DNA of 39,457 nt from Gammaproteobacteria bacterium (lineage in GTDB: Bacteria > Pseudomonadota > Gammaproteobacteria > Burkholderiales > SG8-39). Location of the stretch: assembly GCA_041499545.1 (NCBI GenBank), contig JBGQKK010000001.1, positions 1 through 39,457 of the forward strand. The letters run 5' to 3'. The notes under the pieces were generated by a model. The model saw only the letters and a list, made by a program, of their open reading frames with translations. It had not been told where the DNA came from and did not search any database. The translations under genes and the position numbers were made by a program. This document shows positions 5,677 to 27,478 of this stretch, piece by piece (within the stretch, counting starts at the first letter, position 1; each line of letters opens with the position of its first letter).

Positions 5677-6037
5677 AACCGAAACGGCGGTAGAAGCCCG
5701 CAGCCTGAATCTGGGCGTGGAGCATCGCGCGAGCCATTGAACGGGTGCGCGCACGGTCCAGCATTGCGCCGAGCAAGGCCGTCCCCACTCCCTGCCGTCG
5801 CCAGTCCTTGAGCACCGCCATGCGCCCGATGCGTCCGTCGGGCAGGAGGCGCGCGGTCCCGATCGGATCGCCCTTAGCGTCGAACGCCACCGCGTGGTCG
5901 CTCGGCTCGTCCCATTCGTCCCATTCCAGATCCTTCGGCACGCTCTGCTCTTCGACGAACACTCGCTCGCGCACCGGGCGCGCGAGCGGCAGCGCCTCGC
6001 GCCAAGACATGATCCGGATGGTGAACGGCACAGACAT
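5582..6037 (-). CDS. GNAT-family N-acetyltransferase
   Basis: 151 aa. Acetyl-CoA binding motif RRQGVGTALL and a C-terminal FYRRFGF motif. An alternative start is the Met at 6010. Confidence 0.85.
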   Translation of the reverse strand: MSVPFTIRIMSWREALPLARPVRERVFVEEQSVPKDLEWDEWDEPSDHAVAFDAKGDPIGTARLLPDGRIGRMAVLKDWRRQGVGTALLGAMLDRARTRSMARAMLHAQIQAAGFYRRFGFNERGGAFLEAGIPHVEMTLELRPGKAPSDS

Positions 6038-6045
6038 GAGCGCTT

Positions 6046-6051
6046 TATAAT
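6046..6051 (+). promoter_or_regulatory. consensus -10 box (TATAAT) 7 nt upstream of the aldolase-SDR ATG; candidate leaderless promoter
   Basis: Perfect TATAAT in the 21-bp gap between the divergent GNAT and aldolase-SDR genes. The spacer cctaccg has no Shine-Dalgarno. Confidence 0.4.
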
Positions 6052-6058
6052 CCTACCG

Positions 6059-8029
6059 ATGCAAAGCGCTTGGAAGGACGAGGAGGCGACGCAGTTTCAG
6101 GGGGACCTGGGCCTGCGCGTCTACACCTCGCGGCTGCTCGGCCGCGACAAGTCCCTGGTGCTGCACGGCGGCGGCAACACCTCGGTCAAGATCCGCGAAA
6201 AGAACCTCTTCGGCGAGGAGGAGACGGTCCTCTACGTCAAGGGCAGCGGCTGGGACCTGGAGACGATCGAGCCGCAGGGCTTCTCGCCGGTGCGGCTCGC
6301 GCACGTGCTGCGGCTGGCCGAGCTGCCTTCGCTCTCCGACCCCGAGATGGTCAACCAGCTCGTCACGCACATGCTGAAGGCGTCGGCCCCCGCGCCCTCG
6401 ATCGAAACGATCCTTCACGGTCTGATGCCTCAAAAGTTCGTGGACCACACGCACGCCGACGCGGTCCTGTCAGTGACCAACACGAAGGACGGAGAAAAGC
6501 GCATTCGCGAGATATACGGCAGGCGCTGTGTGGTGATTCCCTATCTCATCCCGGGATTCGATCTCGCTCAGTTCTGCGCGAAGGCATTCCGCGCGCAGGG
6601 GACGCCCGACACGGTGGGCATGGTGCTTCTGAATCACGGCATCTTTTCCTTCGGCGAGACCGCGCGCGAGTCCTACGAGCGCATGATCGAGCTCGTGACC
6701 CTCGCCGAGAAGTACCTCGAGTCGAGGGGTGCATGGTCGGTGAAACTGAAGCCGCCTGCACCTGGAACCGTGGATGTGGCGTCCCAAGCTCGCCTCAGGC
6801 GAGCACTCTCGGACACGGCCGGTACTCCGCTCATCCTCCGGACGACGATGAATGAACGCATGCTGGGCTTCGCCCGGCACCCCGACGTCGGCCGCATTTC
6901 GCAGCAGGGCCCCGCGACTCCCGATCACGTCATCCGCACCAAGCGCATACCTATGATCGGGACCGACCTCGCGCGCTACGTCGACGAATACAAGGCGTAC
7001 TTCGGCAAGCACGCCGCAGAGGCGAAGGAGCCCAAGACCATGCTCGACCCGGCCCCGCGGGTCGTGCTCGATCCCGGCTTCGGCCTCGCCGCCGCCGGCC
7101 GTACCGCGAAGGATGCGGCCATCGTGGACGAGATCTACGACCACACCATCGATGTGATCCTGCGCGCCGAGGCGCTCGGCGGATTCCAAGCCCTGCGGTC
7201 GAAGGACATTTTCGATGTCGAATACTGGGACCTGGAACAGGCGAAGCTCAAGAAAGGCGGCAAGCCCGCGGCCTTCGCCGGCGAAGTCGTAGTCGTTACC
7301 GGCGCCGCGTCCGGTATCGGCAAGGCGGCGGTAAGCGCCTTTCTTTCCCGCGGAGCCGCGGTAGTTGGGCTCGACCTCGACGCGAAGATCGAACCGCTGT
7401 ACGCGCGACCGGATTTCCTGGGTCTGCGCTGCGACGTCACCGACGAGGCGCAGATCAAAGTCGCCGTCGCCCGTGCGGTCGCCGCTTTCGGCGGAATCGA
7501 TATGCTGATTCTGAACGCCGGAATGTTCCCTGCGACGCGCAGAATCGCCGATCTGCCCACCGAGGAGTGGCGCAAATCGATGAGCGTGAATCTCGATGCG
7601 AACCTGCTGCTGATGCGTACCTGCCACCCTATCCTCAAGCTCGCGCCGCGCGGCGGCCGCGTGGTGGTCATCGGCTCGAAGAACGTGCCGGCGCCCGGGC
7701 CGGGCGCGTCGGCCTACTCGGCCTCGAAAGCGGGACTCAACCAGCTCGCGCGCATCGCCGCGCTCGAATGGGGCGCCGACGGCATTCGCATCAACACGCT
7801 GCATCCCAACGCGGTGTTCGACACCGGCCTGTGGACCGAAGAGGTGCTCGCGCAGCGGGCGAGGCAATACGGCATGACGGTCGAGGCCTACAAGACCAAC
7901 AACGTGCTGCGTACCGAGGTCACGAGCCGCGACGTCGCCGAGCTGGCGGCCGAGATGTGCGGACCGCTATTCGCCAAGACCACCGGCGCCCAAGTGCCCG
8001 TGGACGGCGGCAATGAACGCGTCATCTGA
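6059..8029 (+). CDS. bifunctional class II aldolase/adducin-domain protein fused to a short-chain dehydrogenase/reductase
   Basis: Start taken at ATG 6059 (MQSAWKDEEATQF...); the listed ORF 5894.. extends over the GNAT gene. The N-terminal part carries LHGGGNTSVK and VDHTHADAV (class II aldolase metal His). The C-terminal part carries VVVTGAASGIGKA (Rossmann fold), NAG and YSASKAG (SDR YxxxK). Confidence 0.85.
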   Translation: MQSAWKDEEATQFQGDLGLRVYTSRLLGRDKSLVLHGGGNTSVKIREKNLFGEEETVLYVKGSGWDLETIEPQGFSPVRLAHVLRLAELPSLSDPEMVNQLVTHMLKASAPAPSIETILHGLMPQKFVDHTHADAVLSVTNTKDGEKRIREIYGRRCVVIPYLIPGFDLAQFCAKAFRAQGTPDTVGMVLLNHGIFSFGETARESYERMIELVTLAEKYLESRGAWSVKLKPPAPGTVDVASQARLRRALSDTAGTPLILRTTMNERMLGFARHPDVGRISQQGPATPDHVIRTKRIPMIGTDLARYVDEYKAYFGKHAAEAKEPKTMLDPAPRVVLDPGFGLAAAGRTAKDAAIVDEIYDHTIDVILRAEALGGFQALRSKDIFDVEYWDLEQAKLKKGGKPAAFAGEVVVVTGAASGIGKAAVSAFLSRGAAVVGLDLDAKIEPLYARPDFLGLRCDVTDEAQIKVAVARAVAAFGGIDMLILNAGMFPATRRIADLPTEEWRKSMSVNLDANLLLMRTCHPILKLAPRGGRVVVIGSKNVPAPGPGASAYSASKAGLNQLARIAALEWGADGIRINTLHPNAVFDTGLWTEEVLAQRARQYGMTVEAYKTNNVLRTEVTSRDVAELAAEMCGPLFAKTTGAQVPVDGGNERVI

Positions 8030-9071
8030 GGCAAAGTCGGTCGAAACGCTGCGCTGGCGGGACGGCCGCCTCGAGCTGATCGACCAGCGCTTGCTGCCCG
8101 AGCGCTTCGAATACCTGAGCTGCACGAGCGCCGCCGAAGTCGCCGCGGCCATCCGCGTTATGGCGGTGCGCGGCGCTCCCGCGATCGGCTGCGCGGCGGC
8201 GTTCGGCATCGCGCTCGAAGCGCAGCGGCAAAGGCACCGCGCTCCGGCGCAATTCTCCGAGGCCATGGAAGCCGCGTTCGGAACTCTCGCCGGGAGCCGG
8301 CCCACCGCGGTCAACCTGTTCTGGGCGCTCGCTCGCATGCGCGAAGTGCTCGCGGCGCATCGAAACCAACCCGAAACCGCGGCTTCGGAGCTCGCGGCGG
8401 CCGCGCTCGCGCTGTTTCGCGCCGATCTCGAGACCAACCGCGCCATCGGGAAGGCCGGCGCGGCGCTCGTCCCCGACGGCGCGCGCGTCCTCACCCATTG
8501 CAACACCGGCGCCCTCGCGACCGCGGGACACGGAACGGCGCTCGGCGTGGTGCGCTCGGCGCGCGACGCGGGCAAGCGCATTTCGGTGATCGCCGGCGAA
8601 ACGCGCCCGTATCTGCAGGGTGCGCGCCTCACCGCCTGGGAGCTGATGCAGGAGGGGATTCCGGTCACGCTCGTCACCGACAGCACCGTGGGTCATCTCA
8701 TGAGCCGCGGCAAGGTGGACCTGGTGATCGTGGGAGCGGACCGCATCGCGGCGAACGGCGACGTCGCGAACAAGATCGGCACCTACACCGTCGCCGTGCT
8801 CGCGGAACGGCATCGCATCCCCTTCTATGTCGCAGCGCCCCTTTCCACCATCGACATCGAAGTCGCCGACGGCGCCTCGATCCCCATCGAGGAGCGCGGC
8901 GCGGCGGAAGTCACCGGCTACGGCGGGATGCGCTGGGCGCCCGAAGGAGTGGCAGTCGCCAACCCCGCCTTCGACATTACTCCGGCAGCGCTGGTAAGCG
9001 CGCTCTTTACCGAAAAGGGAGTCCTGGCACGGCCGAACGCGGAAAAGATCCGCGGGCTCTTCGCAGCATGA
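8013..9071 (+). CDS. mtnA: S-methyl-5-thioribose-1-phosphate isomerase (MtnA / 5-deoxyribose-1-P isomerase family)
   Basis: 352 aa. Motifs VRGAPAIG, HCNTGALATAGHGTALGV, ETRPYLQGARLTAWEL and GADRIAANGDVANKIGTY. Overlaps the upstream gene by 17 nt. Confidence 0.9.
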   Translation: MNASSEAKSVETLRWRDGRLELIDQRLLPERFEYLSCTSAAEVAAAIRVMAVRGAPAIGCAAAFGIALEAQRQRHRAPAQFSEAMEAAFGTLAGSRPTAVNLFWALARMREVLAAHRNQPETAASELAAAALALFRADLETNRAIGKAGAALVPDGARVLTHCNTGALATAGHGTALGVVRSARDAGKRISVIAGETRPYLQGARLTAWELMQEGIPVTLVTDSTVGHLMSRGKVDLVIVGADRIAANGDVANKIGTYTVAVLAERHRIPFYVAAPLSTIDIEVADGASIPIEERGAAEVTGYGGMRWAPEGVAVANPAFDITPAALVSALFTEKGVLARPNAEKIRGLFAA

Positions 9072-10551: not shown

Positions 10552-12744
10552 TTACACCAGCTTGACGTTCTTCAGCGGCAGGCTGCGCACCGGCTTCCCG
10601 GTCGCGGCAAAGATCGCGTTCATCACCGAAGGCGCCACCACGCAGATGGTCGGCTCGCCCACCCCGCCCCAGAAGTCGTAGGTCGGCACGAGCACCGTCT
10701 CGATCTTCGGCATCTCGGCCAGGCGCAGGATCGGGTAGGTGTCGAAATTGAGCTCTACCATGCGACCCTTCTCGACCGTCATCTCGCCGTAGAAGGTCGC
10801 GCTAAGGCCGTAGGCCACCGAGCCCTCCACCTGCGCTGCGACCTGGTCCGGGTTGACGACGTGCCCGCAGTTGATCCCGAGCACCATGCGGTGCACCTTG
10901 ACCTTGCCCTCCTTGCTCACCGAGACCTCGGCGACCGCGGCCGAGTAGCTGCCGTAGCCCATGAATTGCGCGATGCCGCGGTGCACGCCTGCGGGCAGCG
11001 GCTTGCCCCAGCCCGCTTTTTCCGCCACCGCGTTCAGCACGCCAAGGTGCTTGGGATGGTTCTGCATCAGCGCACGGCGAAACTCGAGCGAGTCGGCGCC
11101 TGCCGCGCGCGCCACTTCCTCCATGAAGCACTCCAGGTACACGCCGTTCTGGTTCGTGTTGACGCCGCGCCACGGGCCGACCCGCATGTGCGTATTGCGC
11201 ATCGCATATTCGATCGCGAGGTTCGGCACCGTGTAGCCGAACTGCGCGTCTCCGGGCGCCTGCCACAGTCCCTGGAGCTGCCGGGTGTCCTTGCCTTCCT
11301 TGATCGCTCCCGGGTTCAGGTGCGCGTTGATCGACTGGCCGGAGACACGGATGTGCATGCCGACGAGCTTGCCGCTCGAATCGAGGCCGGCTGTGAGCTT
11401 GGACTGCGAAATCGGACGGTAGAAATCGTGCGCCTGGTCTTCCTCGCGGCTCCAGATCAGCTTGACCGGCGTACCCGGAAACTGCTTGGCGATGGCGACG
11501 GCCTGCCGGGTGTAGTCCTGCGTGCCCCCGCGCCGGCCGAATCCGCCGCCCAGGTCGAGCTTGTGGACCTCGCCGTTCGCGAGCGGCACGCCGGCCTCTT
11601 CGCAGGCGGCCGCGAGCGAACCCTCGGCGCTCTGGGTTGCGGTCCACACCTCGACCTTGTCCCCTTTCACCTGGGCCGTGCAGTTCATCGGCTCCATGGT
11701 CGCGTGGGACAGGAAGGGCGTGCTGTACACGGCCTCGACCTTCTTTGCGGCGCCAGCGATCGCCTTCTGCGCGTCGCCGATGTTAGTGTCGGCGAAGGCG
11801 TCGTTCGCCGTCAGGCCTTCCTTCAGGCGCTCGGCGATGGCGGCGCTCGATTGCGATCCGCCCGCGCCCTCGTTCCAGACGACGGGCAGCGTGTCGAGCG
11901 CGGTCTTCGCCCGCCACCAGGTATCGGCGACCACGGCGACCGCGTCGTCGTGCACCCTGACCACGCGCTTCACTCCGGGCAGGTTCGCAAGCTTCGCCTC
12001 GTCGTAGCTCGCGAGCTTGCCGCCGTGCACCGGGCACCTCTTGACGGCGGCGAGGAGCATGCCGGGCAGCTTGACGTCGATCGCGTAGACCTTGCTGCCG
12101 TTCAGCTTGTCGGCGGTGTCCAGGCGCTTCATCGGCTTGCCGGCGACCTTCCAGTTCTTCGGATCCTTCAGCTTGATGCTCGTCGGGTCGGGCGGGGTCA
12201 GCTTGGCCGCGGCGGCGGCGACTTTGCCATAACTGGTCTTGCGGCCCGAAGCTGCGTGGGTGATGACGCCGTCGGATACCGTCAGCTCGCCGACCGGAAC
12301 CTTCCATTCGTCGGCCGCCGCCTGCAGGAGCATGATGCGCGCCGCTGCGCCGCCGCGGCGCACGTAATCCTGTGACGTGCGGATGCCGCGGCTGCCGCCC
12401 GTGGCCATTTCGCCCCAGGCTCGCTTGCGGGCGAGATTCTGTCCGGGGAAGACGTGCTCGGTCGTGACTTTCTTCCAGTCGCACTCGAGCTCTTCGGCGA
12501 CCAGTTGGGCGAGGCCCGTGAGGGTGCCCTGCCCCATCTCGGAGCGCGCGATGCGGACGACGCAGACGTCGTCGGGCCGGACGACGACCCAGGTATTGAT
12601 CTCGGTTCCGGAGGCGCCTTGCGCCGCCGCTTCGCCGATGGCGAAGGGAAACGGGATTCCGAGGGCCAGGCCGCCGCCAGCGGCGGCGGAGCCGACGATG
12701 AACTTGCGGCGGGAAAGATTCGTGGATTGCGTATTCGTTTTCAT
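10552..12744 (-). CDS. molybdopterin-dependent oxidoreductase large subunit (IorB / aldehyde oxidase-xanthine dehydrogenase family), Tat-exported
   Basis: 730 aa. Twin-arginine signal NLSRRKFIVGSAAAGGGLALG...AAAQG. Aldehyde-oxidase/xanthine-dehydrogenase a/b hammerhead and MoCo-binding-like regions (GGGFGRRG). Confidence 0.85.
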   Translation of the reverse strand: MKTNTQSTNLSRRKFIVGSAAAGGGLALGIPFPFAIGEAAAQGASGTEINTWVVVRPDDVCVVRIARSEMGQGTLTGLAQLVAEELECDWKKVTTEHVFPGQNLARKRAWGEMATGGSRGIRTSQDYVRRGGAAARIMLLQAAADEWKVPVGELTVSDGVITHAASGRKTSYGKVAAAAAKLTPPDPTSIKLKDPKNWKVAGKPMKRLDTADKLNGSKVYAIDVKLPGMLLAAVKRCPVHGGKLASYDEAKLANLPGVKRVVRVHDDAVAVVADTWWRAKTALDTLPVVWNEGAGGSQSSAAIAERLKEGLTANDAFADTNIGDAQKAIAGAAKKVEAVYSTPFLSHATMEPMNCTAQVKGDKVEVWTATQSAEGSLAAACEEAGVPLANGEVHKLDLGGGFGRRGGTQDYTRQAVAIAKQFPGTPVKLIWSREEDQAHDFYRPISQSKLTAGLDSSGKLVGMHIRVSGQSINAHLNPGAIKEGKDTRQLQGLWQAPGDAQFGYTVPNLAIEYAMRNTHMRVGPWRGVNTNQNGVYLECFMEEVARAAGADSLEFRRALMQNHPKHLGVLNAVAEKAGWGKPLPAGVHRGIAQFMGYGSYSAAVAEVSVSKEGKVKVHRMVLGINCGHVVNPDQVAAQVEGSVAYGLSATFYGEMTVEKGRMVELNFDTYPILRLAEMPKIETVLVPTYDFWGGVGEPTICVVAPSVMNAIFAATGKPVRSLPLKNVKLV

Positions 12745-12757
12745 GGTCGCCTCCGCC

Positions 12758-13219
12758 TCAGGCTTTCTTGTTCATGTCGGCGGCTATGTGCACCGCCGCC
12801 CGGATGCGTTGATACGTGCCGCAGCGGCAGATGTTGGTCATGGCCGCGTCGATGTCGCCGTCGGTCGGTTGCGGCTTCTTCGCGAGGAGCGCCGCCGCCG
12901 CCATGATCTGCCCGGACTGGCAATAGCCGCACTGCGGCACGTCGATCGCCGCCCACGCCTTCTGCACGGGATGTGAGCTGTCGCGCGACAGGCCTTCGAT
13001 GGTGACGATCGTGTCCGTCGGCTTGATGGAGCCGACCGAGATGGAGCAGGAGCGCACGACCTCGCCGTTCAAGTGCACCGAGCAGGCGCCGCACTGCGCG
13101 ACGCCGCATCCGTATTTCGTTCCGGTGAGTCCCACCTGCTCGCGGATGACCCACAGGAGAGGCGTGTCGGTCTCCACCTGTACGTCGCGCGTGCTGCCGT
13201 TGATATTGAGTTTCGCCAC
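12758..13219 (-). CDS. (2Fe-2S)-binding small subunit of the molybdenum hydroxylase (IorA-like)
   Basis: 153 aa. Two cluster motifs: [16 protein letters not shown]...C and [11 protein letters not shown]...NICRCGTY. A strong SD (AGGAGGAG) precedes the ATG. Confidence 0.9.
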
Positions 13220-23042: not shown

Positions 23043-23870
23043 ATGCCCGATCGCCGCCGTACCGTGTTCTTCGTCTCGGACGGCACCGGCATCACGGTCG
23101 AGATGCTCGGGCACAGCCTGCTCACGCAGTTCGACGGCGTCGAGTCCAACCACGAGACCATCCCCTTCGTCGACTCGGTCGCCAAGGCCGAGGCCTGCGT
23201 GACCCGGATCAACGGCACCCCGCGGCCGGCGAGCTTCCGCCCCGTCGTTTTCACCACGCTCGTGAATCCCGAGATACGAGAGACCGTGCGCAAGGCGGAC
23301 GCATTCGTGCTGGATTTCTTCGAGATCTTCCTCGACCCGCTGGAAGCGGAGTTCGGCTCGAAATCGACCCACACCGTCGGGCGCTCCCACAGCGCGCGCG
23401 ACGCGAAGGGCTATACGCACCGCATCGACGCCATCAATTTCGCCCTCGCCCACGACGACGGGGCGTCCTCCCGGGACCTCGACAAGGCGGACGTGATCCT
23501 GATCGGGGTGTCGCGCAGCGGCAAGACACCGACCAGCCTGTACCTCTCCCTGCAGTTCGGCATCCGTGCGGCCAACTGCCCGCTGATCCCGGAAGATTTC
23601 GACCGCATGAGCCTGCCCAAGGCGCTGGAGGGTTACCGTCACAAGCTCTTCGGCCTGTCGATCGCGCCCGAGCGCCTTCGCGAGATCCGCAACGAGCGCC
23701 GGCCCAACAGCAAGTACGCCGAGCTGGAGAACTGCCGCTACGAGGTGCAGCAGGCCGAGAAGCTCATGCAGCGCGAGGGTGTCCGCTGGGCCAACTCCAC
23801 GACCAAGTCGATCGAGGAGATCGCCACGACCATCATGCAGGAATTCAAGTTGGAGCGACGCGTGTACTGA
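23043..23870 (+). CDS. ppsR: PEP synthase regulatory protein (bifunctional kinase/pyrophosphorylase, DUF299)
   Basis: 275 aa. [14 protein letters not shown]-terminus and P-loop [11 protein letters not shown]. Divergent from ppsA. Confidence 0.93.
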
Positions 23871-24645
23871 CGCCCCGCTGCCGGATCTGCTCGAAGAGAC
23901 ATATGGCAGCCGCGGCGGCCACATTGAGCGACTCCGCCGAACCCGGCATCGGAATCCGCACCTGCGTCGTCGCCGCGGCTCTCGCCGCCGAGGACAATCC
24001 CGCCCCTTCGTTCCCGAACAGCCACGCCACCTCCCCCTTAAGATCGAGATCGTAAAGGGAAGTCTGCGCGCGCGGCGCGGTGGCGATGATCCGGCCGCCG
24101 AACGAACGCGAGACTTCCTCCAGATCGACGTCTTCGAAGATCGACAGGAAGAAGTGCGCTCCCATGCCGGCGCGCACGACCTTGGGGGCCCAGGCGAAGA
24201 CCGATCCGCTGGAGAGAAACACCTGGCGCGTCCCGGCCGCGACGGCGGTGCGCAGTATCGACCCCAGATTCCCGGGGTCCTGGATGTTCTCCAGCAGCAG
24301 GCAGCCCGATGCGAGCTTCGGCAAGGGGCCGGCCTCGGGGGTGCGGATGACGGCCGCCACGCGGGCTGCGCTCGCGAGCTGGGAGACCTTGGCGAGGACG
24401 TCGTCGGCGAGCACCAGGCGCGAGCGCGCCCGGAAACTCTCGAGCAGAACCTGAATCCCGGGGTCGGCGAAGGCGCTCTCGCTCGCGAGTATCGTCTCAG
24501 CCGTGCCGCCGCTCTCCCCGTACGCCCGCACCAGACGCTCGCCTTCGAGCAGCGTTGTGCCGGTCTTGCGGCGCTCCCGCGACGAGCCCGCGAGCTTGAC
24601 CAGGGCCTTGACCGCGGGGTTGCTTCTCGAGCGGATCGCTTTCAC
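23845..24645 (-). CDS. TrmH/SpoU-family RNA 2'-O-methyltransferase
   Basis: 266 aa, GTG start overlapping the upstream stop (GTGA). SPOUT motifs [24 protein letters not shown] and [17 protein letters not shown]. Confidence 0.85.
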
Positions 24646-25943
24646 GGCGTGGCGCAGGTGCGAAAACCCGCGAAGATGTCGCCCCGCTCGGGCGTATAAA
24701 AATTTCTCCAGCTGGTTGCGATGAGTCGCGCGGGCGTCGCGAAGCTGCCCCCGCGCAGCACTTTGTGAGTTCCGAACCAGGGCTCGGAGTACTCGCGATA
24801 AGGATCACACACGAACCCCGGATAAGGCGCGAAGGTGCTGGAGGTCCATTCCCAGACGTTGCCGATCATCTGGCGACACCCGCCGAAGCTGTCGCCCGAG
24901 GGAAACCGGTCCACGGGCACTCGGCCGCTGCTGCCCAGGTTGGCGCGGCCGCCTTCGCTCGAATCTCCCCAAGGGTAGCGGCGCCGGCGGTTCTCTCCGG
25001 CGAGAGAGGCGGCGACCTCCCATTCGGCTTCGCTGGGCAGGCGCCGGCCGGCGTAGCGGCAGTACGCGCTGGCCTCGTGCCAATCGACATGCATGACCGG
25101 AAGATCGGGCAGGAGAGGGATCCACTCGGAAAAACGGCGCTCGAGCCACTGCTTGTCCCGCTGGGCCCAGTAGCGCGGCGCGCTCGCCTCGCCCTTGCAT
25201 TCCCACCCTTGCGGTGACCACCACTCGCGGCTCCGGTACCCGCCTTCGCGGACGAACGCCAGGAACTCCTCGTTCGTGACCGGCGACCGCGCGATCCGGA
25301 AAGGTGCGAGCTCCACCGGGTGCGCCCATTTCTCGTTGTCGAAGTGAAAACCGGAGTTGCGCGACGCGCCGATCATATAGGTCCCGCCGGGCAGCTCCGC
25401 GTCGCCCCGTGCCTCCTCGCCCTTCCCTGCGGCGGGCGAGGCTTCACGCCCGAACGGATCGGTGTACGCGAGCGTCTGGCGGGTGTAATGAAACGCCTCG
25501 GCGTGCATATCTTCGTGGAAGATCGCCAACTGCACGAAATAGGCGAGCCACGGGTCCTCCGGCTCCCGGTCGAGCCGCGCCAGCACGCCTTCGAGCACCC
25601 GCTCCTGGAAATCGAGGGTACGGGACAGCTCGGGCAGCGGCAGGTCCCAGCGCTCGTCGTGGGCGACCTTCGCCGAGTCGTAGAGGGCATCGGACCCTTC
25701 GAGCAGGCTGGCCGACAGCGATTCGTCGGGGCGCAGCCTCAGGCACCAGCGCTCCTGGAACCAGGCGACGTGCCCCAGCTCCCACAACACGGGATTGACG
25801 ATCGTGCACCTGGGGCCGAACAATTGCTGGCCCTGGAGGTCGCCCGTGAGCGCCCGGGTGCGCCGCCTCGCGTCCCGCAACTGGTCCGAGAGCGTTCGAG
25901 AATTTTCGTGAAAGGACGCCATGGGCTGGAAAGAATCGAACAT
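24642..25943 (-). CDS. EgtB-family DinB + FGE-sulfatase-domain synthase; candidate selenoneine synthase (SenA-like)
   Basis: Start taken at ATG 25943 (alternative 25922), 433 aa. The DinB-like N-domain has the 3-His iron pattern (WELGHVAWFQE; FHEDMHAEAFHY). The C-terminal FGE-sulfatase-like domain has GNVWEWT and RGGSFAT. The listed ORF 24642..26120 extends over the divergent gene. Confidence 0.7.
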   Translation of the reverse strand: MFDSFQPMASFHENSRTLSDQLRDARRRTRALTGDLQGQQLFGPRCTIVNPVLWELGHVAWFQERWCLRLRPDESLSASLLEGSDALYDSAKVAHDERWDLPLPELSRTLDFQERVLEGVLARLDREPEDPWLAYFVQLAIFHEDMHAEAFHYTRQTLAYTDPFGREASPAAGKGEEARGDAELPGGTYMIGASRNSGFHFDNEKWAHPVELAPFRIARSPVTNEEFLAFVREGGYRSREWWSPQGWECKGEASAPRYWAQRDKQWLERRFSEWIPLLPDLPVMHVDWHEASAYCRYAGRRLPSEAEWEVAASLAGENRRRRYPWGDSSEGGRANLGSSGRVPVDRFPSGDSFGGCRQMIGNVWEWTSSTFAPYPGFVCDPYREYSEPWFGTHKVLRGGSFATPARLIATSWRNFYTPERGDIFAGFRTCATP

Positions 25944-25946
25944 TAC

Positions 25947-26945
25947 ATGAAAATTGCGCTCATCACGCCGGCGGGACGGCGCTCGCGAAGCGGCAACCGG
26001 CACACCGCGATTCGCTGGGCCGAGATGCTGCGCTCCCTTGGACATACGGTCCGGGTCTCGCGCGTCTGGGACGGCTGGGCTGCCGATGCCATGATCGCGC
26101 TGCACGCGCGGCGCAGCCATGCCTCCATCGCCGGATTCAGGGAACGCCGTCCCGGCGCGCCGCTGGTCGTCGTCCTCACCGGCACCGACTTGTACCGTGA
26201 TATCCGCTCGGACAGGGACGCGCAGGCTTCGCTCGACCTCGCCGACCGCCTGGTCGTCCTGCAGGACATGGGCAAGCTCGAGCTCGCGCCGCGGCTACGG
26301 ACCAAGACGCGGGTGATCTACCAATCGGCCGAGAGCCACGCGAGCTCCTACCGTCGGTCGCGGGGCTTTCGCATCGCGGTGCTCGGCCACCTGCGCGAAG
26401 AGAAAGACCCCTTCCGTGCGGCGCTCGCGCTGGCACGTCTGGCCGACCGGCCCGATCTCGAAATCGTGCATTTGGGCGAGGCCCTTTCGCCCGCCATGGC
26501 TCGCGAGGCGCAGCGCCTGATGCGGATCGATGCCCGCTACCGGTGGCTGGGAAACGTGGCCCATGGCACTGCGCTCGAGTGGCTCGCCGGGAGCCGCCTC
26601 CTCGTCCTCAGCTCGCGCATGGAGGGCGGCGCCAACGTGGTCTGCGAAGCCGCCGCCGCCGGTGTTCCCGTGATCGCGTCCCGGGTTTCGGGCAACGTCG
26701 GCATGCTGGGCCGAGCTTATCCCGGCTACTACCGGCTCGGTGACGAGCGCGCGCTCGCACGCCAAATTCGCCGCGCCGCCCTCGATCCGGCGTATTACGC
26801 GCGCTTGAAGGCCTTCACCGTCGCGCGCCGCCCGCTGTTTCGTCCCGCAGCGGAACGCCGGGGACTGCGCATGCTCCTGGCCGAGCTCACGCGCCCTCAG
26901 CCGCGCTCGAGCAGCTCCCGGACCGGGGCGAAGCTGCGGCGATAG
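25947..26945 (+). CDS. GT-B glycosyltransferase; candidate selenosugar synthase (SenB-like)
   Basis: Start at ATG 25947 ([24 protein letters not shown]...), 332 aa. GT4-like C-terminal motif [24 protein letters not shown]. The listed ORF 25320.. is an antisense extension over the EgtB-like gene. Confidence 0.6.
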
Positions 26946-27478
26946 GCCTCGCAGACGCCGTACCGGCGCAAAGCTTTGAGATGCCGCGGGGTCGGGTATC
27001 CCTTGTGCTCGTCGAAGCCGTACTGGGGAAAGCGCTCGTGGAGGCGGCGCATTTCCGCGTCTCGCGCGGTTTTCGCCAGGATGGAAGCGGCGGAAATCAC
27101 CTTAACCGTCGCATCCCCGTCGATCACCGCCCGGGCGGGAATCGCGAGCGCGGGACAATGCGCTCCGTCGAGCAGAACTTCATCGGGTGCGAGGCTCAGC
27201 GACTCCACGGCACGCCGCATGGCGAGCAGGCTCGCCTGAAGGATATTCAAGCTGTCGATCTCCTCGACGCTCGCCCATGCCACCGCCCAGGCGAGCGCCC
27301 TCTCCTTGATGACCCCGGCGAGCCGCTCGCGACGCCGGGCGCTGAGAAGCTTCGAATCGGCGATGCCGTTCGGCGCGCGCCGCCCGGGAAAAAATACGAC
27401 GGCCGCCGCGAAGACCGGGCCGGCGAGCGGTCCCCGGCCGGCTTCGTCGACGCCGCAGATCAAGCGGGTCGCAACCAC
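26897..27478 (-). CDS. rnhB: ribonuclease HII
   Basis: GTG start at 27478 ([22 protein letters not shown]...), 193 aa. DEAGRG and DSK motifs. The listed ORF 26897..28459 is an extension into lpxB. Confidence 0.92.

Follow-up and report, generated by a model that had tools for sequence, protein, structure and literature searches.

Does a senA/senB-type gene pair that lacks neighboring genes for its precursors still make selenoneine, or does it point to a different chemistry? This question is raised by a 39,457-nucleotide stretch of DNA from an uncultured betaproteobacterial lineage (contig JBGQKK010000001.1 of assembly GCA_041499545.1), referred to here as the window. An earlier annotation made without database searches, the sequence-only reading, had described in it an EgtB-like synthase gene facing a glycosyltransferase gene, and had proposed a senA/senB-type pair. 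It left two options: either selenophosphate and hercynine are supplied from elsewhere, or the pair uses a different donor or acceptor, which would be new chemistry. In the present analysis, the assignment to SenA and SenB is borne out by curated hidden Markov model (HMM) cut-offs, diagnostic residues, phylogenetic placement, and gene adjacency. The two-gene module very probably makes selenoneine, with selenophosphate and hercynine supplied by genes elsewhere in the chromosome.

The chemistry of the pair can be outlined by homology to the Variovorax paradoxus enzymes. A SelD encoded elsewhere would make selenophosphate, which SenB would combine with a UDP-sugar, most likely UDP-N-acetylglucosamine (UDP-GlcNAc), to give a 1-seleno-sugar. 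An unlinked EgtD would make hercynine. SenA, as a predicted Fe(II)/O2-dependent selenoxide synthase, would join hercynine, at C2, to the selenosugar, and loss of the sugar from the resulting selenoxide would leave selenoneine.

The open reading frames (ORFs) and Pfam agree with the earlier description of a 433-aa DinB-like and FGE-sulfatase protein facing a 332-aa glycosyltransferase, and all of the quoted motifs are present. The minus-strand ORF, translated from MFDSFQPM, is 433 aa long and holds WELGHVAWFQE, FHEDMHAEAFHY, GNVWEWT, and RGGSFAT. Pfam places DinB_2 at residues 21–148 and FGE-sulfatase at residues 183–429 and reports nothing else; no fused methyltransferase domain was detected, in agreement with the claim that the C-terminal domain typical of OvoA is missing. 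On NF041186, the NCBIfam equivalog model for SenA, the synthase reaches 504.6 bits, above the cut-off of 420. The EgtB model TIGR03440 gives 330 bits, below its cut-off of 360, and the OvoA N-terminal model gives 140 bits against a cut-off of 400. Among solved structures in the PDB, the best sequence matches are the OvsA-YNF mutant (312 bits), wild-type OvsA (302 bits), V. paradoxus SenA (268 bits), and EgtB of Mycobacterium thermoresistibile, MthEgtB (250 bits). Sequence identity is ~41% to V. paradoxus SenA and ~38% to MthEgtB.

Active-site residues were read from HMMER alignments and from a MAFFT alignment of 84 sequences. The composite motif of SenA has been given as xNEH--HRHxHYYN(F/Y)(F/Y)R (Kayrouz et al. 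2024, PMC11030361), and every position fits in the window protein: N49, E55, and H58; H95 and R98; H143, M146, and H147; Y382 and Y385; N414, F415, and Y416; and R420. The three-His iron triad H58/H143/H147 and the catalytic Y382 align with H51/H134/H138 and Y377 of MthEgtB, and Y382 also aligns with Y398 of OvsA. MthEgtB binds the thiol through Arg87 and Asp416, and at these two positions all SenA proteins have His and Phe/Tyr, respectively (Kayrouz et al. 2022, bioRxiv 2022.04.13.486033). A residue-by-residue alignment with 4x8b indeed places His95 of the window synthase at Arg87 and Tyr416 at Asp416. OvsA, which uses histidine and acts at C5, has M401/Q430/A431 where V. paradoxus SenA, which uses hercynine and acts at C2, has Y366/N395/F396, and the triple mutant OvsA-YNF gains SenA activity (Kayrouz et al. 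2024). The window synthase carries Y385/N414/F415, i.e., the YNF hercynine motif and not the Met/Gln/Ala of OvsA. That the top PDB match is the OvsA-YNF mutant rather than the wild type also fits the assignment to SenA.

For comparison, the 80 best relatives from species-representative genomes were collected with stored flanks of at most 10 kb, depending on the contig, and their loci (cited below by L numbers) were scored for senB, selD, and egtD by seed-based BLAST. A neighbor-joining tree of 80 sequences, rooted on MthEgtB and tested with 100 bootstraps, separates EgtB type I proteins, which carry the motif NWD, from SenA and OvsA in 100 of 100 bootstraps, with the window protein on the SenA/OvsA side. 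The OvsA clade, with the motif MQA, is itself supported at 100%, and the window protein lies outside it, within the SenA radiation. Nesting inside a sulfur-specific EgtB clade, which the sequence-only reading had named as the outcome that would speak against it, is thus not the case; the profile-HMM and phylogenetic placements it had suggested put both proteins above the SenA and SenB cut-offs and the synthase among SenA proteins rather than EgtB type I.

Two other identities of the synthase can be judged from these data. The first is an ordinary sulfur-specific EgtB sulfoxide synthase of ergothioneine biosynthesis with an unrelated glycosyltransferase next to it. The shared two-domain architecture and the identity to the M. 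thermoresistibile enzyme would be expected of such a protein, yet the EgtB model score stays below its cut-off, His95 and Tyr416 stand at Arg87 and Asp416, NFY is found in place of NWD, and the tree splits the protein from EgtB type I with full bootstrap support. The neighbor, moreover, is a TIGR04348 SenB, and a senB homolog adjoins the synthase gene in most loci with the SenA motif. EgtB type I identity was rejected on these sequence-based grounds, and this explanation deserves hardly any credence. The second is an OvsA-type synthase that selenylates C5 of free histidine in the ovoselenol pathway, an identity prompted by the top PDB match. It would explain the lack of egtD, and a 48-residue segment of the FGE domain (residues 313–360) is kept as in OvsA and EgtB, unlike in V. 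paradoxus SenA. However, the top match is the triple mutant, which behaves as SenA; the window motif is Y/N/F instead of M401/Q430/A431; the protein falls outside the fully supported OvsA clade; and the window contains no OvsM-type methyltransferase. OvsA identity was therefore ruled out as a working assignment and is considered extremely improbable.

The segment 313–360 (window 24867–25007) varies within SenA. It is present in the window protein, in L002 and L003, and in OvsA and EgtB, and it is deleted, with 3–10 residues left, in the Comamonadaceae/V. paradoxus clade as well as in five members of the betaproteobacterial clade to which the window protein belongs (examples are L034, L042, L045, L046, L050, and L054). 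It is apparently dispensable, and its loss may have occurred repeatedly. A further variation concerns a SenA-like clade from Amphritea, gammaproteobacterial metagenome-assembled genomes (MAGs), and a Methylomirabilales MAG (L005, L021, L025, L026, L029, L030, and L056), which has Thr-Tyr-Tyr at the hercynine-binding Asn-Phe/Tyr-Phe/Tyr of SenA and hence lies outside the published composite motif. The L021 synthase of this type (L021:9926–11338) still reaches 498 bits on the SenA HMM, and egtD, senB, and a selD fusion adjoin the synthase gene in most of these loci. The substrate-binding mode of this clade may differ.

For the product of the facing gene, TIGR04348, the model named "selenoneine biosynthesis selenosugar synthase SenB", gives 408.8 bits, above its cut-off of 300, and the next-best family gives 101.7 bits against a cut-off of 400. 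Pfam reports Glycos_transf_1/Glyco_trans_1_4. The three solved SenB proteins in the PDB match with 209–225 bits, among them RsSenB (8k5u) with 225 and V. paradoxus SenB (8jjq/8fbx) with 212. In V. paradoxus SenB, the selenophosphate pocket comprises N20, H58, R61, T83, T85, and R155, with K158 as the catalytic residue, and the sugar-donor determinants are N20/T23/E231 in an EGGAHV motif (PMC10891094). In this numbering, N20, T23, H58, R61, T83, T85, R155, K158, and E231 are all kept in the window SenB, and the sole differences at the compared positions are Glu at V157 and EGGANV for EGGAHV (Asn at H235). The 15-residue pattern of the window protein, NTHRTTREKEGGANV, is the commonest among 57 SenB homologs from related loci. 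It ranks first whether selD is adjacent (13 loci) or not (11 loci). Most homologs have Glu157 and the Asn of EGGANV, and these residues are the commonest state in selD-linked homologs, too. As aligned, the SenB active site gives no hint of a different acceptor.

The supply of the two precursors is the remaining part of the question. The earlier claim that neither selD/senC nor egtD lies in the 39 kb held in Pfam scans, in public gene calls (right-hand part), and in tblastn searches. Pfam scans of the remaining window ORFs returned no AIRS and no Methyltransf_33 domain, and tblastn of the window with SelD and EgtD seeds gave no match better than E = 0.02. The seeds were confirmed above the NCBIfam cut-offs of TIGR00476 for SelD and TIGR03438 for EgtD, the EgtD candidates having first been located with an approximate probe. 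senA and senB are adjacent, and no selD/senC lies within ~5 kb of them in the window, as it would in a three-gene sen cluster. The surroundings could be followed further on near-identical contigs. At the nucleotide level, the window shares 99.9% identity with the Joint Genome Institute (JGI) contig Ga0534153_0001217 from sample 3300052990 and 99.7–99.9% with contigs JBGPCY010000003.1 and JBGPCY010000011.1 of the NCBI MAG GCA_041482055.1, which it bridges. The JGI contig and the MAG belong to the same population as the window, and no public contig that was found matches the window exactly. The JGI and MAG contigs extend the region by housekeeping genes only.

The absence of a linked selD is not peculiar to this locus. 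Of 31 loci that carry the SenA motif and are flanked by 5 kb or more in both directions, 14 show an adjacent senB but neither selD nor egtD, 8 have selD within 10 kb, and 7 have none of the three genes. A senA/senB-only locus is the commonest arrangement among the relatives and hence no sign of new chemistry. Where the two genes are adjacent (44 pairs), their orientation is divergent in 28 cases. Neighborhood clustering of 23 selD-less senA/senB pairs from other phyla revealed no third conserved gene and no alternative selenium-activation gene beside them. In a published survey, only 827 of 2,353 TIGR04348 genes have egtB and selD within 5 kb. Motif classification has recognized 1,514 SenA sequences (PMC11030361). 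For the related ovs genes, co-occurrence despite chromosomal separation has been reported from some strains. Hercynine is expected to come from a separate egt cluster (bioRxiv 2022.04.13.486033).

Linkage can be looser still. In L060, L064, L065, and L067–L072 (Hylemonella, Rhodoferax, and Curvibacter MAGs), the synthase has the SenA motif and is of the short V. paradoxus type, and no senB or selD occurs in the stored flanks (10 kb or less); senA and senB can therefore also be unlinked. Where selD is linked, it takes two forms. In ~14 gamma- and alphaproteobacterial sen loci (L021 (12424–14691), L025, L026, L030, L033, L035, L036, L038, L039, L040, L047, L052, L056, and L061), it encodes a fusion of ~760 aa of a pyridine-nucleotide-disulfide oxidoreductase (TIGR03169, "Nterm_to_SelD") with SelD. 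The Comamonadaceae-type SenC is unfused.

The window pair occupies a conserved chromosomal site. The order rnhB / senB <> senA-spoU / ppsR-ppsA is found in nine betaproteobacterial assemblies, namely the window, L002 (81% SenA identity), L003 (71%), L008, L034, L042, L045, L046, and L050. The eight relatives are annotated as Beta- or Gammaproteobacteria or as Burkholderiales MAGs, all eight have the spoU neighbor, and the SenA proteins of all nine group together in a clade supported at 96% in the bootstrap. Ratios of nonsynonymous to synonymous substitution (dN/dS, Nei–Gojobori) for the window versus L002 and L003 are 0.16 and 0.19 for senA and 0.18 and 0.20 for senB. They equal those of spoU (0.18 and 0.19), and the lpx and fab genes span a range that includes them. 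Thus, senA and senB are under purifying selection. Together with the shared site and the clade, these values indicate that the pair has long belonged to the chromosome of this lineage, with vertical inheritance and under selection, and is not a three-gene cluster in decay. In L050 only, rnhB and senB are separated by a gene for methanethiol S-methyltransferase (MddA; L050:7112–7804, 303.6 bits, cut-off 270); its product could conceivably methylate thiols or selenols.

Two explanations that depart from selenoneine synthesis with precursors supplied in trans have to be considered here. In one, a selenophosphate synthetase is absent from the lineage altogether, and another chalcogen donor, e.g., thiophosphate leading to a thiosugar, yields a sulfur or other non-selenium imidazole product. 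selD is indeed missing from the 13–24 kb around the pair in the window and was not found in the stored flanks (~1 to 10 kb) of the eight same-site relatives; V. paradoxus SenA, moreover, turns over thioglucose. Thioglucose is, however, reported to be a very poor SenA substrate, with sulfoxide elimination much slower than that of the selenoxide (bioRxiv 2022.04.13.486033). The SenB acceptor pocket equals that of selD-adjacent homologs at the compared residues, SenA has the selenosugar-type His95 and Tyr416, and across phyla selD is most often not linked to the pair. A non-selenium product is accordingly judged very unlikely. It is likewise highly doubtful that the same-site clade has no selD anywhere and that the pair runs on a different activated chalcogen donor or an unknown route to selenophosphate; if true, it would be a two-gene, SelD-independent route to a (seleno/thio)imidazole.

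In the other explanation, the genome lacks egtD, and the selenosugar is coupled to an acceptor other than endogenous hercynine, such as imported hercynine or another histidine betaine. It draws on the failure to find egtD in the window or in the stored flanks of the eight syntenic relatives and on some sen loci that carry egtD beside senA, a hint that hercynine can be in short supply. Against it, classical sen clusters are also without egtD and use a separate egt pathway (bioRxiv 2022.04.13.486033), and the trimethylammonium-binding N414/F415 and Y385 are intact in the window synthase. Such an acceptor is judged quite unlikely.

Several points weigh against selenoneine synthesis with supply in trans. 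No selD, egtD, or selenium transporter gene was found anywhere in the 39-kb window or in the ~7 kb that the JGI contig adds past its right end. SenA and SenB are only ~41% identical to the characterized V. paradoxus enzymes. SenB's choice of sugar donor may also differ from that of V. paradoxus, because the residue at V157, which contacts the acetyl group of UDP-GlcNAc, is Glu and the His of EGGAHV is Asn. Nevertheless, of the two options left by the sequence-only reading, supply in trans is favored because the SenB pocket and the SenA residues on the hercynine and selenosugar sides match homologs linked to selD and egtD, and because senA/senB-only loci are the commonest. The option of new chemistry found no positive support. 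Residue conservation, the frequency of unlinked arrangements, and selection all point to selD and egtD elsewhere in the genome.

The coordinates of the pair and its surroundings are collected in the table.

Table. Features of the senA/senB region in window coordinates.
Feature	Position	Strand	Remarks
senA, predicted selenoneine synthase (non-heme-iron selenoxide synthase; DinB_2 + FGE-sulfatase)	24642..25943	-	longest ORF 433 aa
senB, predicted selenosugar synthase (GT-B/GT4 Se-glycosyltransferase, TIGR04348)	25947..26945	+	332 aa
Spacer between divergent start codons	25923..25946		24 nt; 3 nt if first senA ATG used
Sigma-70-like match TTGACG-18-AACAAT	25795..25824	+	inside senA coding sequence, ~120 nt upstream of senB ATG
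SpoU/TrmH-family RNA methyltransferase gene	23845..24645	-	Pfam SpoU_methylase + MRM3-like_sub_bind
rnhB (RNase HII)	26897..27478	-	public gene call + Pfam RNase_HII

The two genes are divergent, with the ATG codons of the longest ORFs at 25943 on the minus strand and 25947 on the plus strand; the 332 aa of SenB are counted from the latter. In an alignment with the two closest relatives, L002 and L003, the second senA ATG (Met8, window 25922) is the sole conserved in-frame start. SenA is therefore probably 426 aa long, with 24 nt between the two start codons; the 433 aa given earlier remain the length of the longest ORF. A block at the start region, GCGCAATTTTCATGT(A/T)ATGTT, is kept in the window, L002, and L003. 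The short spacer leaves no space for an intergenic promoter, and both promoters would therefore lie inside the opposing coding sequences. The sigma-70-like sequence inside senA (one site in the region versus 0.2 expected from shuffles) is a possible, weak candidate for the senB promoter, being a consensus match only. No terminator was found in a scan of the senA/senB region, and Rfam and tRNA scans of the window gave no matches.

The spoU-type gene lies directly downstream of senA, with an overlap of 4 nt between its GTG start and the senA stop; the two are probably co-transcribed. This gene is a conserved flank of the pair and has no role as a pathway enzyme. On the other side, rnhB is convergent with senB, their 3′ ends overlap by 49 nt, and it forms the other boundary of the two-gene module. 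The other genes of the window, according to Pfam and public gene calls, are housekeeping genes: tatD, holB, tmk, mltG, a YgfZ-like gene, a TANGO2-family gene, guaA, guaB, smpB, ppsA, ppsR, lpxB, lpxA, fabZ, lpxD, ompH, bamA, rseP, dxr, cdsA, uppS, frr, and pyrH. Others in this set encode an aldolase–short-chain dehydrogenase fusion, an MtnA-like protein, a transglutaminase-like protein, two Mo-hydroxylase subunits, and a YkuD-family protein. At window 5894–9071, the gene for the fusion of a class II aldolase with the short-chain dehydrogenase (711-aa ORF) overlaps the start of the IF-2B/MtnA-type isomerase gene. This arrangement presumably resembles the dihydroxyacetone phosphate ("DHAP") shunt of methylthioadenosine/5′-deoxyadenosine salvage, which pairs an isomerase with an aldolase, with an added reductase domain. 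The Mo-hydroxylase genes (window 10552–13219) encode a molybdopterin-binding subunit of the xanthine dehydrogenase/aldehyde oxidase family (730 aa) and a [2Fe-2S] subunit (153 aa). The locus is otherwise ordinary, and the curated NCBI models would already name both SenA and SenB.

With these results, the predicted producers of selenoneine come to include an uncultured lineage of betaproteobacteria. What is conserved of the pathway is, at the minimum, senA together with senB, and a linked selD is the exception among the closest species-representative genomes (8 of 31 well-flanked loci). Mining for the three-gene cassette therefore undercounts selenoneine producers.

Three known systems are close enough for a direct comparison. 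EgtB type I (M. thermoresistibile, 4x8b; egtABCDE) shares with the window synthase the DinB and FGE fold, the three-His iron site, the catalytic Tyr, and the predicted hercynine acceptor. It differs in the thiol-binding Arg87/Asp416 and the NWD motif, both missing from the window protein, which also falls below the EgtB HMM cut-off and is partnered by a glycosyltransferase instead of egtA/C/D/E. OvsA of the ovs system for ovoselenol (Halomonas utahensis, Marinobacter; 8u41, 8u42, and 8ux5) gives the highest sequence score of the solved structures and shares the His at EgtB-Arg87, the Tyr at EgtB-Asp416, and the segment 313–360. OvsA also needs a SenB-type selenosugar, and the ovs genes can be chromosomally separated. 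Yet OvsA takes histidine at C5 through M401/Q430/A431, whereas Y/N/F in the window synthase predicts hercynine at C2; the ovs cluster includes the N-pi-methyltransferase OvsM, which the window lacks, and the window protein lies outside the OvsA clade.

The V. paradoxus sen cluster, composed of SenA, SenB, and the selenophosphate synthetase SenC (Kayrouz et al. 2022; 8k5i/8ryz and 8jjq/8fbx), has the same two families, architectures, diagnostic residues, and senA–senB adjacency as the window. Differences are present in the lack of a linked senC/selD, in the ~41% sequence identity, in the 48-residue segment that the window SenA keeps and the V. paradoxus type has deleted, and in SenB, where Glu stands at V157 and EGGAHV reads EGGANV in the window protein. 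The window pair is also set between the housekeeping rnhB and a spoU-type gene, with start codons 24 nt apart. In V. paradoxus-type sen clusters, egtD is likewise usually outside the cluster, and in the related Comamonadaceae loci L054, L057, and L073, senB is divergent from senA, as in the window.

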